Origin: Eledone cirrhosa | Taxonomy: Eukaryota | Assembly (NCBI GenBank): GCA_964016885.1 | Contig: CAXHJY010000635.1 | Coordinates: forward strand, 1-32,902 | Direction of reading: 5' to 3' | Length of the DNA: 32,902 bases | Part shown: one piece after another, positions 237 to 29,520 of the stretch | How positions within the stretch are numbered: position 1 is the stretch's first letter | Layout: each line of letters starts with the position of its first letter | The notes under the pieces: generated by a model | The model's input: only the letters and a program-made list of their open reading frames with translations | What the model was told of the DNA's origin: nothing | Databases searched by the model: none | Program-made: the position numbers and the translations under genes

Positions 237-281
237 AATATTGCTGATGAGTTGTAACAACAACGAAACTAGTTCAATATT
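237..281 (+). ncRNA. Type I hammerhead ribozyme, array unit 1
   Basis: Stem I AATATTG(237-243)/CAATATT(275-281); CTGATGA 244-250; stem II GTTG-taacaa-CAAC; GAAA 265-268; palindromic stem III AACTAGTT; predicted cleavage after GUU (274). Stem I extends with bulges to about 209/304. Confidence 0.9.
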
Positions 282-703
282 CCTTGTCTGGCTTTCTGGA
301 GAATAGAGGAAAGGTGTTTCCTCAAAAACCAGTATGACTCTAAAAACCGGTTTGTCTGTGTGTTTACATACAGAATAGCTGGCCACTCACAGTAAAGTGA
401 CCAGTGAAAAAACTTGGTACATCTACATATGTATACGTGTGTGTATTCATATACATACTAGTATTTCAGTATACATATATGGATGTACATCTTTAACTTA
501 ATTGTTTAAGCGTCAGTCATACAAAAGTGAGTTACAAACGAAACGAAATTTAATTTCGTTTCGTTATTTGTTTTTATCGTCTCCGTTGAACCGGTACTTA
601 CTCACACTCTATGCAAATTAGTCTGCCCACTACTAATTTTCATAGAAAAAGCATATAACGATATGTGCTTTTACGATTCTCTAGAGAGGCCGGAAGATAG
701 GTA

Positions 704-748
704 AATATTGCTGATGAGTTGTAACAACAACGAAACTAGTTCAATATT
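704..748 (+). ncRNA. Type I hammerhead ribozyme, array unit 2
   Basis: Identical to 237-281 (+467); CTGATGA at 711-717. Confidence 0.9.
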
Positions 749-1170
749 CCTTGTCTGGCTTTCTGGAGAATAGAGGAAAGGTGTTTCCTCAAAAACCAGT
801 ATGACTCTAAAAACCGGTTTGTCTGTGTGTTTACATACAGAATAGCTGGCCACTCACAGTAAAGTGACCAGTGAAAAAACTTGGTACATCTACATATGTA
901 TACGTGTGTGTATTCATATACATACTAGTATTTCAGTATACATATATGGATGTACATCTTTAACTTAATTGTTTAAGCGTCAGTCATACAAAAGTGAGTT
1001 ACAAACGAAACGAAATTTAATTTCGTTTCGTTATTTGTTTTTATCGTCTCCGTTGAACCGGTACTTACTCACACTCTATGCAAATTAGTCTGCCCACTAC
1101 TAATTTTCATAGAAAAAGCATATAACGATATGTGCTTTTACGATTCTCTAGAGAGGCCGGAAGATAGGTA

Positions 1171-1215
1171 AATATTGCTGATGAGTTGTAACAACAACGA
1201 AACTAGTTCAATATT
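1171..1215 (+). ncRNA. Type I hammerhead ribozyme, array unit 3
   Basis: Identical to 237-281 (+934). Confidence 0.9.
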
Positions 1216-25886: not shown

Positions 25887-26349
25887 TAACATTATTTTAG
25901 AAATTAATTTAATTTAATTGTTAGTTAACCTATAAATTTAATTTAATTAATATTTTATTACAGATGAGAATATAAAATATTATGTAATCATAAATTGTGA
26001 AAAACCTTTAAATATTACTAATATATACTTAGTAATTTAATTTATAGATTAATTTTAACTTATTTAAACCTTTTATTATAATTCTTTTACAGATAAAATA
26101 TAACAAAATAATATCGTGTATCCAATGACAGAGAAATAATTTTTAGTATTATAGACCTAATTAATATACATTTTAGAAATATATTTATTATTTGGTTTTA
26201 GTTTTAATCAACCTAAAATTTTAATTTTAATTTGCTTAAAATTAGTATCCTTATACAGACGAATTGCAGAATGTCATGTAATCATAGAATGGGATGTGTT
26301 TTGGATATATACCTAGTTAATATATTCTATGCAATTTTTTGAAAAAGAT

Positions 26350-28800
26350 ATGTATATGTATATGTGTATGTGTATGTGTGTGTGTGTATGTATATGTGTA
26401 TGTATGTATATATGTGTGTATATATATGTGTATATATATATATATATATATATATATATATATGTGTGTGTATATATATGTATATATATATATATGTGTA
26501 TGTTTATGTATATGTATGCGTATTAATTTTGATTTCTATTTGCATATAATTATATTATGCTATTGATGAAATACAATATCTGCTTTATGTATTGTATACC
26601 TAACTAACATATACTATTGAAATAAATATATAATTTTTAATTTAGTTAACATATAATTTATATTCTACTACCGATGTAATACTTTATTTTATTTTTATTT
26701 GTGTGTTTTTTTTCCCTATTACTAAATTCATTTCCTAATATTGATACCATAACGTTATTAACTTTAATTTAATTATACTGTAATTAATAATCTACTACTG
26801 TTTAACTTCAAAATTCTGCTTCAAATATTATAAACCTAACTAATTTACACCTTAGAAGTCAATATGTTGACTATTTTTGGTTTAGTTAACATATGATTAA
26901 TGGTATACTTATTTATTTTGAGATGCATAGATTTTGCCTTAGTTCTTGTTGGTTATGTTTCCTAACACTGAAAATATATAAGAACATACATTGGATAAAG
27001 ATACGGAAAATATTTTATGTTTCTTGAAACATATATTTACTTTGATCCCCTTCTCCAAACCCCCCCTTTCCCCCATACTATTATCATCTGTATTTGTAAG
27101 CGTCTATGTATGAATATATATGTAGGTAGGTGTCTATATAGGTTTGGGTATTTATATCTAAATATAAAAATACATATATGCGCATGCAAATATGAATGTA
27201 AGATTGCGTGTGTATATATGAGTGTGTATATGTATGTATATATGTGTATATATGCATTATATATGTATGTGTATGTGAATGTGTGTACGTATATGTGTAT
27301 GTATGTGTATATATGTGTATATATGTGTATGTATGTATATATAGGAATATATATATGTGTATATATATATGTATATGTATATGCGCGTGTATGTATGTGT
27401 GTGTATGTGTGTTGTATATATATGTATGTCTCTCTATTTATATGTTTATCTTCGTATCTATGTGATATATGTGTGTGTGTGTGCATGTATGCATATGTAT
27501 GTGTTTATGTGTATTTGTGTGTGTGTGTGTATATATGTGTGTGTACACACACACACATATATATATATATGTGAATGTGTATATGTGTCTGTGTATATGT
27601 ATGTGTGTATATATATATATATATATATATATATATATATATATATATATATAGGTGTCTATGTGTGAATATATGTCTATATTCGTACGTGTGTATTTAT
27701 GTATGTATATGTTTATATGTATGTATGTATGTGTATGTATGTATGTATATATATATATATATGTGTATATATATATATATATATATATATATTATTCTTC
27801 ATTATTATAATATAACTTATGTGTATGTGTGTATAAGTGAGGTTGTGTATGTGTATATAATATGTATAAATATAAGTGTAAAAAAATATATATATATGTG
27901 CATGTCTGTTTTTTATGTGTGTGTGTATATATATATATATATATATACGTGTGTATATATATGTATATGTGGGTGTTTGTATGTGTATTTATGGTGGTAT
28001 AAGTGTGTGGATATCTATGTGTATATATATATTTATATGTATGTATGAGTGTATGTGTGTGTATATACATATATATATATATATATGTGTATATATATAT
28101 ATATATATATATATATGTGTATGTATGTGTATATGTATATCTCTATTAATGCGTGTGTGTATGTATATACATATGCCTTTTTATTATTATTTTTATTTGT
28201 ATGTCTGAGTTTATGTGAGGTTGTAGCGGTTTTTTATGTATATACGCATATATGGATGCGTATGTATTTGTATATATGAGTATAAGTAAGTACATATGTA
28301 TGTATGATTATATATCTAATTCTATGTATGAATATACATGTGTATATATATATGTGTGTATGTAAGTTGTGTGTGTATGTATCTATATGTCTATGTGTGT
28401 GTATATATATATATATATATATATGTATGTCGATGTGCGTATATGTACATGTATGTACATGTATGTGTGTGTGTATGCGTATGTATATTTAGATGTATGT
28501 GTATGTATATGTATATATATATATATATATATATATGTGTATGTGTATATATATATATGGGTATATATCTTTATTATTTATTTTTTTTATATATATGTGT
28601 ATGTGTGTATGTGTTGCGTGCGTGTGTGTGTATATATATATCTTTATATATGTGTATGTGTATGTTCGTGTAGGTGTATGTGTGTGTATGACTGTATATG
28701 TATGTGTGTATGTGTGTATGCGTAAATATTTCTATGTGTGTGTACATGTATGTATGTGTATATATCTGTATGTGTATGTATATTATATTATATTTATTAT
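26350..28800. repeat. Low-complexity TA/TG/TATG tracts inside the PLE-C 3' UTR (mirrored at ~17410-19860)
   Basis: The irregular pattern is reproduced almost base for base in both arms. Confidence 0.9.
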
Positions 28801-29365
28801 ATTTTATTGTTTTATTTTTTTATTTTTCTTAATTTATAGATACATTTATATTAGGCAGTCTGCTCAGACAATTGAATACTGACCCTTCCCCCCCCCTCCC
28901 ACCTAATTTCTGTATCTTGATCTAGAAATGTGTGTACCAGTGTTTTATGTGAGTGAATTAATATCCATGTGCTTATGATTTTATATCCACATATATAAAT
29001 GTGAGTGGGGGTGTGTGTGTGTTTGTATGTTCGTGGTTATGTGTATATTTATGCATATACGCGCGTGTATGTGTGATTGTACTGATATGTGTGAGTATGA
29101 AAAAATATATTTATATACTTGATTTCATAAGTATCAATGCGCATCTTATCTGCGCAAAGTAAGCTTACAGAGACATTAACCTTGAAATTTTGTATTTGCA
29201 TCCATCCTTTTAGTATGCGTATACAAATTATACATACATTTTTGTAAAATATGTGTAAGGGTTTTACATGTATATACACACACCAAACTGCATTTAACCC
29301 TTTGTGTTTTCATTGGTCAATTTTGAACTGAAATTTTGAATTGTTGTTATTATCAATAAATATAC

Positions 29366-29520
29366 TTCATTATTTCTGAAGACGGCGTATATATGTGTTT
29401 GGTATGTATATTTAATCTTGATAATTTGTATAATTTTGTATAATTTTGTACATAGATCTGTTGAATATGCATACCAATTCTAACACATATATATCCTAGA
29501 AACGATCGTTAAATAATGAA
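29366..29520 (+). ncRNA. Long-stem-II hammerhead, PLE-C 3' pLTR
   Basis: Identical to 22947-23101. Confidence 0.87.

Follow-up and report, generated by a model that had tools for sequence, protein, structure and literature searches.

The 32,902-nucleotide (nt) contig CAXHJY010000635.1 of Eledone cirrhosa (assembly GCA_964016885.1), analysed over its full length and called the window below, brings together hammerhead ribozymes, Penelope-like elements (PLEs) and units without an open reading frame (ORF) in tracts of (TA)n, raising the question of which machinery placed the ORF-less units there. A first-pass annotation of this DNA had proposed that autonomous PLEs drive the ORF-less units as parasites into the same targets, and that family-specific palindromes in hammerhead stem III restrict dimer cleavage to self RNA. 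Our analysis indicates that the window is a TA-microsatellite sink holding five separate hammerhead-bearing insertions, and that the ORF-less ones were probably inserted in trans by a Penelope-type protein combining a reverse transcriptase (RT) with a GIY-YIG endonuclease. Judged from sequence, it is the insertion scars, and not the location in TA, that point to PLE machinery acting on ORF-less RNA and hint at trans-mobilisation. The signature of PLEs, an inverted arm with a tail on one side only, was found in the ORF-less elements E and C and in the protein-coding element PLE-C; this layout, with a 5'-truncated inverted arm, has been described for PLEs (Craig et al. 2021, PMC8557442).

Twelve hammerhead motifs in five insertions

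Scanning both strands of the window located 12 hammerhead motifs of five families at the positions given beforehand. Motifs and counts were thus confirmed, with the restriction that they reduce to just five insertions: two Hydra-clade PLEs (PLE-B and PLE-C) and three elements without an ORF (A, C and E). Internal copies are 98–100% identical (divergence 0% in A, 0.07% in PLE-C, 0.7% in E, 1.5% in C and 2.1% in B), so conservation within families is trivial in this window. The features are as follows, with lengths in nt, base pairs (bp), kilobases (kb) or amino acids (aa).

1..1909, forward strand: element A, 4.1 identical 467-bp head-to-tail units, classed as an ORF-less non-LTR retrozyme (LTR, long terminal repeat); its 5' end lies outside the window
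237..281, 704–748, 1171–1215 and 1638–1682, forward strand: hammerheads A1–A4, 7-bp stem I plus distal helix, CUGAUGA, 5-bp stem II, stem III ACUAGU, GUU site with predicted cleavage after 274 (A1)
3669..5232, no strand assigned: element E, ORF-less head-to-head fold-back, arms 99.3% identical
3888–3925, reverse strand, and 4939–4976, forward strand: hammerheads E1 and E2, PLE minimal type, extra U before G10.1–C11.1, 6-bp stem II, wobble stem III AGAUUU, stem I of just 2 bp
9884..15808, reverse strand: PLE-B, Hydra-clade Penelope-like element, 1.27 units of ~4.6 kb
12268..14739, reverse strand: PLE-B ORF, RT plus GIY-YIG, RT motif YRND
14995..15043 and 10391–10439, reverse strand: hammerheads B2 and B1, core CCGAAGA, stem III ACAAUUGU, GUA site
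9930–9945, reverse strand: 3' half only of a hammerhead B
15809..15981, reverse strand: inverted arm of element C, 173 nt, comprising 132 nt of the C 3' end and a ~43-nt tail
15982..16486, forward strand: forward arm of element C, 505 nt long, with its 3' end in (TA)n; the whole ORF-less unit is inferred at 532 nt
16011..16094, forward strand: hammerhead C, Hydra-type, 55-nt helix II with an unpaired C.A at its base, stem III ACUAAUUAGU, GUU site
16642..29711, both arms: PLE-C, very young Hydra-clade element, arms 99.93% identical
23445..25886, forward strand: PLE-C ORF, intact, 813 aa, with RWR, DKT, YRDD, CxCx5C linker and C-terminal GIY-YIG with CxxC and CxH
29366..29520 and 22947–23101, forward strand, and 16693–16847, reverse strand: hammerheads D3, D2 and D1, 10-bp stem I, stem III ACGAUCGU, GUU site

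A descriptor scan was run on the 14,812 non-redundant bases and on 300 shuffles. The strict descriptor recovered families A, C and D, while B was found only with U4C allowed and E only with a 2-bp stem I. The total count of four was reached in 0 of 300 shuffles under each relaxation; the E-shaped descriptor alone matched in 1 of 300. In Rfam, only hammerhead A matched (HH9, 37.7 bits, E 4.5e-8 on one unit), falling short of the gathering score of 52, and hammerheads B and C matched none of the hammerhead models tested. Further CUGANGA words, at 2997 and (as TTGA variants) at 3803/5059, did not satisfy the hammerhead descriptors and were discarded, and Rfam microRNA matches in the window were set aside as noise from TA repeats.

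Several earlier statements about these motifs had to be narrowed. Palindromic stems do exist, but the versions reported for A, C and D wrongly included core A14 and cleavage-site U17. The motifs are also not all minimal type I, as A is a canonical Schistosoma/HH9-type hammerhead with loop-1/loop-2 architecture and helix II is very long in C and D. That every hammerhead is sense to its element holds for B and D; in A, C and E the orientation is defined by the hammerhead itself. Similarly, the proposed position upstream of 3' ends at (TA)n applies to seven of the 12 motifs, which have a TA tract 60–510 nt downstream, the remaining five being internal copies that are followed by the next unit or the ORF. 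At the level of outer 3' ends, seven of eight adjoin a TA tract (that of B via an 11-nt GA-rich stretch), and the exceptional end, that of the C inverted arm, meets only one TA of PLE-B.

ORF-less elements carry insertion scars of the PLE type

Element C is probably a closed unit of ~532 nt, too small for any ORF. The last 16 nt of its tail equal the first 16 nt of its forward arm, a word unique within the window, and the last five of these bases pair in distal stem I of hammerhead C. Because of this pairing, we consider the tail-to-head junction probably native rather than the product of a template jump. The inferred circle had a fold z of −4.3, and the hammerhead region alone folded no better than shuffles (z 0.1). 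With its single hammerhead, C lacks the tandem array of at least two units with complete hammerheads by which retrozymes are defined; it would appear to work like a retrozyme, yet is not classed as one. Within the inferred circle (15807–15842 and 15993–16108), those five bases can take part in a 9-bp tail hairpin, which ends at one insertion terminus, or alternatively in distal stem I of the hammerhead; this choice of partner might switch the RNA between priming and cleavage folds.

The border between PLE-B and C is the sole junction without a TA tract among the eight between neighbouring elements. The two meet with a 2-nt TA overlap, and their internal divergence is similar (2.1% in B, 2/132 in C). 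Either C inserted at the first TA beside the 5' end of B, or both were written in a single event with a template jump. Tentatively, and as a scenario we rate below even chances, the 532-nt ORF-less circle and an already crippled PLE-B may have been written in one event by the protein of a third element, which would have primed one DNA end on PLE-B RNA before jumping to C RNA, with the other end likewise primed on C RNA.

Element E carries a ~42-nt tail on its right arm only and is flanked by TA tracts on both sides. Its hammerheads share with the PLE minimal hammerheads of Cervera 2014 (PMC4209133) the extra base 9/10.1, the G10.1–C11.1 pair, a long helix II, a short helix I and a palindromic stem III. 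Opposite-strand pairs 100–700 bp apart are described in the same paper; the E pair lies ~1 kb apart. E has inverted arms only, without tandem or closed unit, its tail matches nothing upstream, and its arm folded no better than shuffles (z −0.9). A 23-nt tandem duplication at 4394–4443 marks the centre of the fold-back, where the arms join.

Element A, in turn, is a non-LTR retrozyme by sequence criteria, with self-cleavage and circular RNA as predictions: it is an ORF-less tandem of at least two units, has a type I hammerhead in every unit, is low in guanine–cytosine (GC) content and is strongly self-paired. Folded as a circle, the unit reached −151 kcal/mol (z −11.8 against shuffles) with 66% of bases paired at 35% GC. 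Metazoan non-LTR retrozymes (PMC7229834; Li 2026, bioRxiv 10.64898/2026.07.22.740005) are likewise ORF-less tandems with one type I hammerhead per unit, low GC and self-paired circles. The 467-nt unit is slightly above the 150–450 range given in 2020 (PMC7229834) and inside the 51–972 of Li 2026, and its site is GUU; in having 1 bp and a palindromic tetraloop, its stem III resembles that of axolotl HHR_Amex1, a hammerhead dependent on a dimer. In comparison with these retrozymes, the hammerhead of C is Hydra-type and not canonical, and C is not tandem at its locus.

The identical array of A, whose 3' end enters (TA)n at 1908, likely reflects rolling-circle copying of one circular RNA. Parts of the A unit occurred in 20 of the 24 sequencing runs listed, under many organism codes; no RNA run was among the runs listed as containing it. 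Depth on the unit was ~0.7–7 × 10^5 in run X1, a figure that gives no copy number, with 1,063 contigs on the unit, and trace (about 0–54) in runs X10 and X16; contigs of all three runs contained the head-to-tail joint. In run X1, 12 contigs exit the unit at place 110 into (AT)n, whereas the window copy stops at place 41, so that the two termini are 69 nt apart. The family is heterogeneous in this run, 9 of 467 places varying at ≥4%, in contrast to the 100% homogeneous window array. Variants there (window coordinates 40–506) include a U to C change at N17 that gives the canonical GUC site (7.6% of depth) and, at 263, one in helix II (22%).

Two Hydra-clade Penelope-like elements

No Pfam model matched the ORF of PLE-B or PLE-C; both were placed via homologues (66 at E ≤1e-3 for the PLE-C ORF, from 7,999 candidates scored) and motifs. 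On these ORF motifs, the two are assigned to the Hydra clade, for which Craig et al. 2021 (PMC8557442) list as diagnostics DKT, RWK, a CxCx5C linker, no CCHH, and CxxC plus CxH. The ORFs are 46% identical to each other. Each element has a single ORF with RT and C-terminal GIY-YIG endonuclease, broken by one stop in PLE-B, and both show DKT instead of DKG, linkers of the CxCx5C form (CNCRNKANC and CNCRSNRTC), no CCHH and a GIY-YIG core without CxxC. RWR replaces RWK, a conservative variant found in several homologues too. Around the conserved E and N, PLE-C has both CxxC and CxH, while PLE-B has CxxC but YQH at CxH, which is taken as decay. Further likeness to the clade lies in the inverted, 5'-truncated arm with tail, in the 3'-proximal hammerhead, which in both elements sits in the pseudo-long terminal repeat (pLTR), and in the insertion into (TA)n, the target of nearly all Hydra families listed in that paper, one of them from Octopus bimaculoides. 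The elements differ from the clade in RWR, in their perfect even palindromes and in unit length: at 6.42 and ~4.6 kb they miss the typical (non-diagnostic) length of <3 kb, owing to long 3' regions.

The hammerheads fit the same assignment. Published Hydra hammerheads have extra bases at the foot of helix II and a 3–4 bp stem III (PMC8557442), and 10 of 25 published families carry U17, as counted, like all our tallies over these 25, by eye from the supplement table. The extra bases of B, and those of C and D together with their GUU sites, are therefore Hydra traits. Helix II, by contrast, is unusually long: it measures 116 nt in D and 55 nt in C, whereas the longest among the 25 families has about 24 nt; that of D forms a hairpin with a fold z of −7.2. 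Compared by eye, none of the five motifs equals the Hydra-1_oBim hammerhead of PMC8557442.

PLE-B is a broken element. An in-frame TAG at 14664–14662 recurs as an identical stop in the 3' copy at 10060–10058, 26 codons past the first Met in both. Since this premature stop is common to copies that otherwise differ at 26 of 1,224 places, it suggests that the template could already not encode a full protein and would have been mobilised in trans, with gene conversion as the alternative. Both complete B hammerheads carry U4C, which reduces hammerhead activity in vitro (Perreault 2011), and the B pLTR piece folded no better than shuffles (z +1.8). The element contains an internal template jump at 9945/9946. 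Its first-made complementary DNA piece (9884–9946, ~60 nt) halts at the foot of hammerhead helix II, 11 nt beyond the cleavage site, from where the element jumps to the region in which the ORF starts. Its 3' region (11197–11914) includes a near-dimer of 339 bp (88%) and a 44-bp tandem, and no hammerhead was found in either.

In PLE-C, the forward arm (22400–29711) holds 1.14 units of 6.42 kb and a 137-nt tail, and the inverted arm (16642–22402) is 5'-truncated. The 3' region of the element (25887–29365, ~3.5 kb) is largely degenerate TA/CA/TG microsatellite with a nearly perfect copy in the inverted arm, and is very long for a Hydra element.

An insertion model and its rivals

How could such scars arise? 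In the model we favour, the endonuclease would cut both strands at TA, and each DNA end would serve as primer for reverse transcription, which would begin downstream of the hammerhead at either of two internal sites. The expected outcome, head-to-head arms with a tail on one end, is the layout seen in E, C and PLE-C; the enzymology is inferred from the anole PLE, which at AT-rich DNA cleaves both strands and extends them, begins reverse transcription at a pair of internal sites by which the tail is defined, and uses uncut RNA (Frangieh 2024). Such priming could account for the one-sided tails of E, C and PLE-C and possibly for the two termini of A. The templates would have been uncut or re-ligated circles, since they appear to have been copied straight across the cleavage site. 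The palindromic stem III would be an ordinary device by which weak type I hammerheads cut as dimers in multimeric RNA, and where pairing is self-only at all, this would be owed mainly to stem I, arising as families diverge and not through selection for a palindrome code.

C and E could instead derive by 5' truncation from further autonomous PLE families, with A as a pLTR-like fragment that underwent local expansion into satellite DNA. PLE insertions are indeed heavily 5'-truncated (PMC8557442), local tandem amplification from a pLTR is offered as a route in Li 2026, E has no closed unit, and template jumps occur in B. We nevertheless regard this explanation as unlikely: the hammerhead of A is canonical, its unit folds strongly and additional TA junctions appear in run X1, and the tail-to-head junction of C leaves no room for an ORF and suits C stem I. 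A tblastn search with the 66 PLE homologues found no ORF remnant in A, C or E. An origin of the long, perfect duplications, inverted and tandem, as artefacts of the assembly or the library is far less probable still. The 100% identity of the A units and the 99.93% identity of the PLE-C arms might raise that suspicion, but the arms are asymmetric, with a tail on one end, and stop at element termini in TA, as in the layout described for PLEs; the A head-to-tail joint recurs in contigs of three runs; and the arms of E, C and B have diverged by 0.7–2.1%.

A number of observations weigh against insertion of the ORF-less elements by PLE machinery, or against individual steps of the model. TA location is not diagnostic of PLE activity in the window. 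Tracts of (TA)n make up ~20% of it, and at seven of the eight junctions between neighbouring elements the tract is ≥40 nt, LINE fragments and a SINE-like element (long and short interspersed nuclear elements, respectively) included. As two LINEs and the SINE-like element occupy the same tracts, the location is not PLE-specific; A, C and E do adjoin TA, as the claim of PLE-like targeting of retrozymes had it, but so do these others. A, C and E show no sequence similarity that would tie them to PLE-B or PLE-C (cross-element blastn gave short words only, with best E 0.003–0.8), and the tails share no structure (hairpins in A, z −2.9, and C, z −2.0; none significant in E and PLE-C). The C junction could be a template jump like that at 9945/9946 in B, and E could simply be a 5'-truncated autonomous PLE, which is conceivable because the 3' region of PLE-C itself spans ~3.5 kb without an ORF. 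The place-41 terminus of A was observed once only. Catalytic activity of all five hammerheads is a prediction, with the less common GUU site in A, C and D, U4C in B and a 2-bp stem I in E; in Li 2026, only one of nine Xenopus dimers cleaved. Finally, dimer dependence likely applies to A and E only. Stem III hairpins of B, C and D (2–3 bp plus tetraloop) came to +1.5 to +2.4 kcal/mol, those of A and E to +6.0 and +5.6, and stem III of B, C and D resembles that of motifs from coral and mussel for which cleavage as monomers is reported (Cervera and de la Pena 2020, PMC7229834).

Taken together, the proposal that autonomous PLEs drive ORF-less parasites stands in part, as the scars make PLE-type mobilisation likely and the idea is largely published, but no sequence tie to PLE-C was found.

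Palindromic stem III as a proposed self-recognition code

Could selection have shaped the family-specific stem III palindromes to confine cleavage in each family to self RNA? Stem III differs in all five families. Perfect Watson–Crick palindromes occur in B, C and D (3/3), against 1 of the 25 published Hydra families, and RNAduplex gave stronger homo-duplexes for A–D than any hetero-duplex. In addition, stem III of A (268–273) had no variant at ≥4% in run X1. This invariance is uninformative, however, as 98% of places are likewise invariant in that run; with only 9 of 467 places varying, six invariant positions are expected without selection, and variation at the edge of the palindrome is confined to N17 (U to C, 7.6% of depth).

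When two type I motifs join in a double hammerhead, the topology entails an exchange of stem I as well as of stem III. Contiguous self pairs in stem I number 7 in A, 5 in B, 4 in C, 10 in D and 2 in E, and cross-family pairs 0–3 at a junction and never more than two at both junctions, so that stem I alone excludes 10 of 10 cross-family combinations. The palindromes of A and C, in turn, cross-pair in register with 6 and 4 pairs. Among 14 Hydra magnipapillata families in the published table, five have one stem III and loop in common, and two more pairs share both stem I and stem III. Moreover, hammerhead cleavage is dispensable for PLE insertion in vitro (Frangieh 2024). With stem I exchanged too and stem III shared among published Hydra families, the claim that palindromes restrict dimer cleavage to self RNA is poorly supported, and a selected code seems improbable to us. 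We favour the reading of stem III as a dimer device, for which cis dimers are possible only in A (467 nt apart), B (4.6 kb) and D (6.4 kb); they are ruled out for E, with motifs on opposite strands, and for C, with one motif.

This dimer device is itself established. Cervera 2014 (PMC4209133), the Weinberg 2019 review and a figure legend of Perreault 2011 describe PLE and repeat hammerheads as having a palindromic stem III and cleaving as dimers. The earlier claim that a weak palindromic stem III acts as a dimer therefore agrees with the literature, though likely only A and E need it. A literature search by title listings found no paper testing hetero-dimer exclusion.

Neighbouring repeats

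The LINE at 7830–9838, which we take to be RTE-like, is 5'-truncated, encodes an RT with an inserted PHD-like finger (Pfam RVT_1, PHD) and has TA tracts on both sides. A further 5'-truncated LINE RT fragment (2010–3196, reverse strand; RVT_1) lies between TA tracts. The SINE-like element (29768–30117, reverse strand) is 68% identical in its 3' part to the 3' end of the first LINE and presumably has a tRNA-like head, which ARAGORN did not find; the program found no tRNA genes in the window. Two long TA tracts enclose a unique 250-bp island (6255–6506) with no PLE protein match and no hammerhead. As a whole, the repeats of the window have a cephalopod-like appearance.

Relation to published elements and significance

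The hammerhead-bearing elements are mostly explained by published classes, as new members of the Hydra PLEs and the non-LTR retrozymes, and palindromic stem III, dimer cleavage, Hydra (TA)n targeting and PLEs as retrozyme drivers are already published. The last of these was proposed in Cervera 2020 (PMC7229834) and is argued for in Li 2026, the grounds being co-occurrence and pLTR homology. Like A, C and E, non-autonomous Chlamys elements such as MRC1 (Craig 2021) lack an ORF; they are PLE derivatives with pLTRs and head-to-tail copies, but they resemble their autonomous partner at the 3' end, whereas A, C and E show no partner similarity. For hammerheads in octopus, Craig 2021 was the only relevant paper found in our literature search, and the scars on C and E and the second (AT)n terminus of A were not found in the literature. 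The palindrome idea adds little, the stem III palindrome being a known dimer device. Worth keeping, in our view, are the closed ORF-less element C with its PLE scar, the junction between PLE-B and C, the doubly present PLE-B stop and the hammerheads with a long helix II. The latter, at 55 and 116 nt, escape or would escape standard models, and some 'hammerhead-less' PLEs may hide such forms.

PLE mobilisation of animal retrozymes has been proposed and not shown mechanistically. If PLE-B and C were indeed written in one event, their junction would capture in the genome how a PLE enzyme carries a retrozyme-like passenger, a step proposed in the retrozyme papers and not yet demonstrated, and PLE-C would be an intact candidate enzyme for such carriage. 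Together, the intact, very young Hydra ORF and the adjacent ORF-less units with PLE-specific scars form a ready set for in vitro priming of the anole-PLE type.

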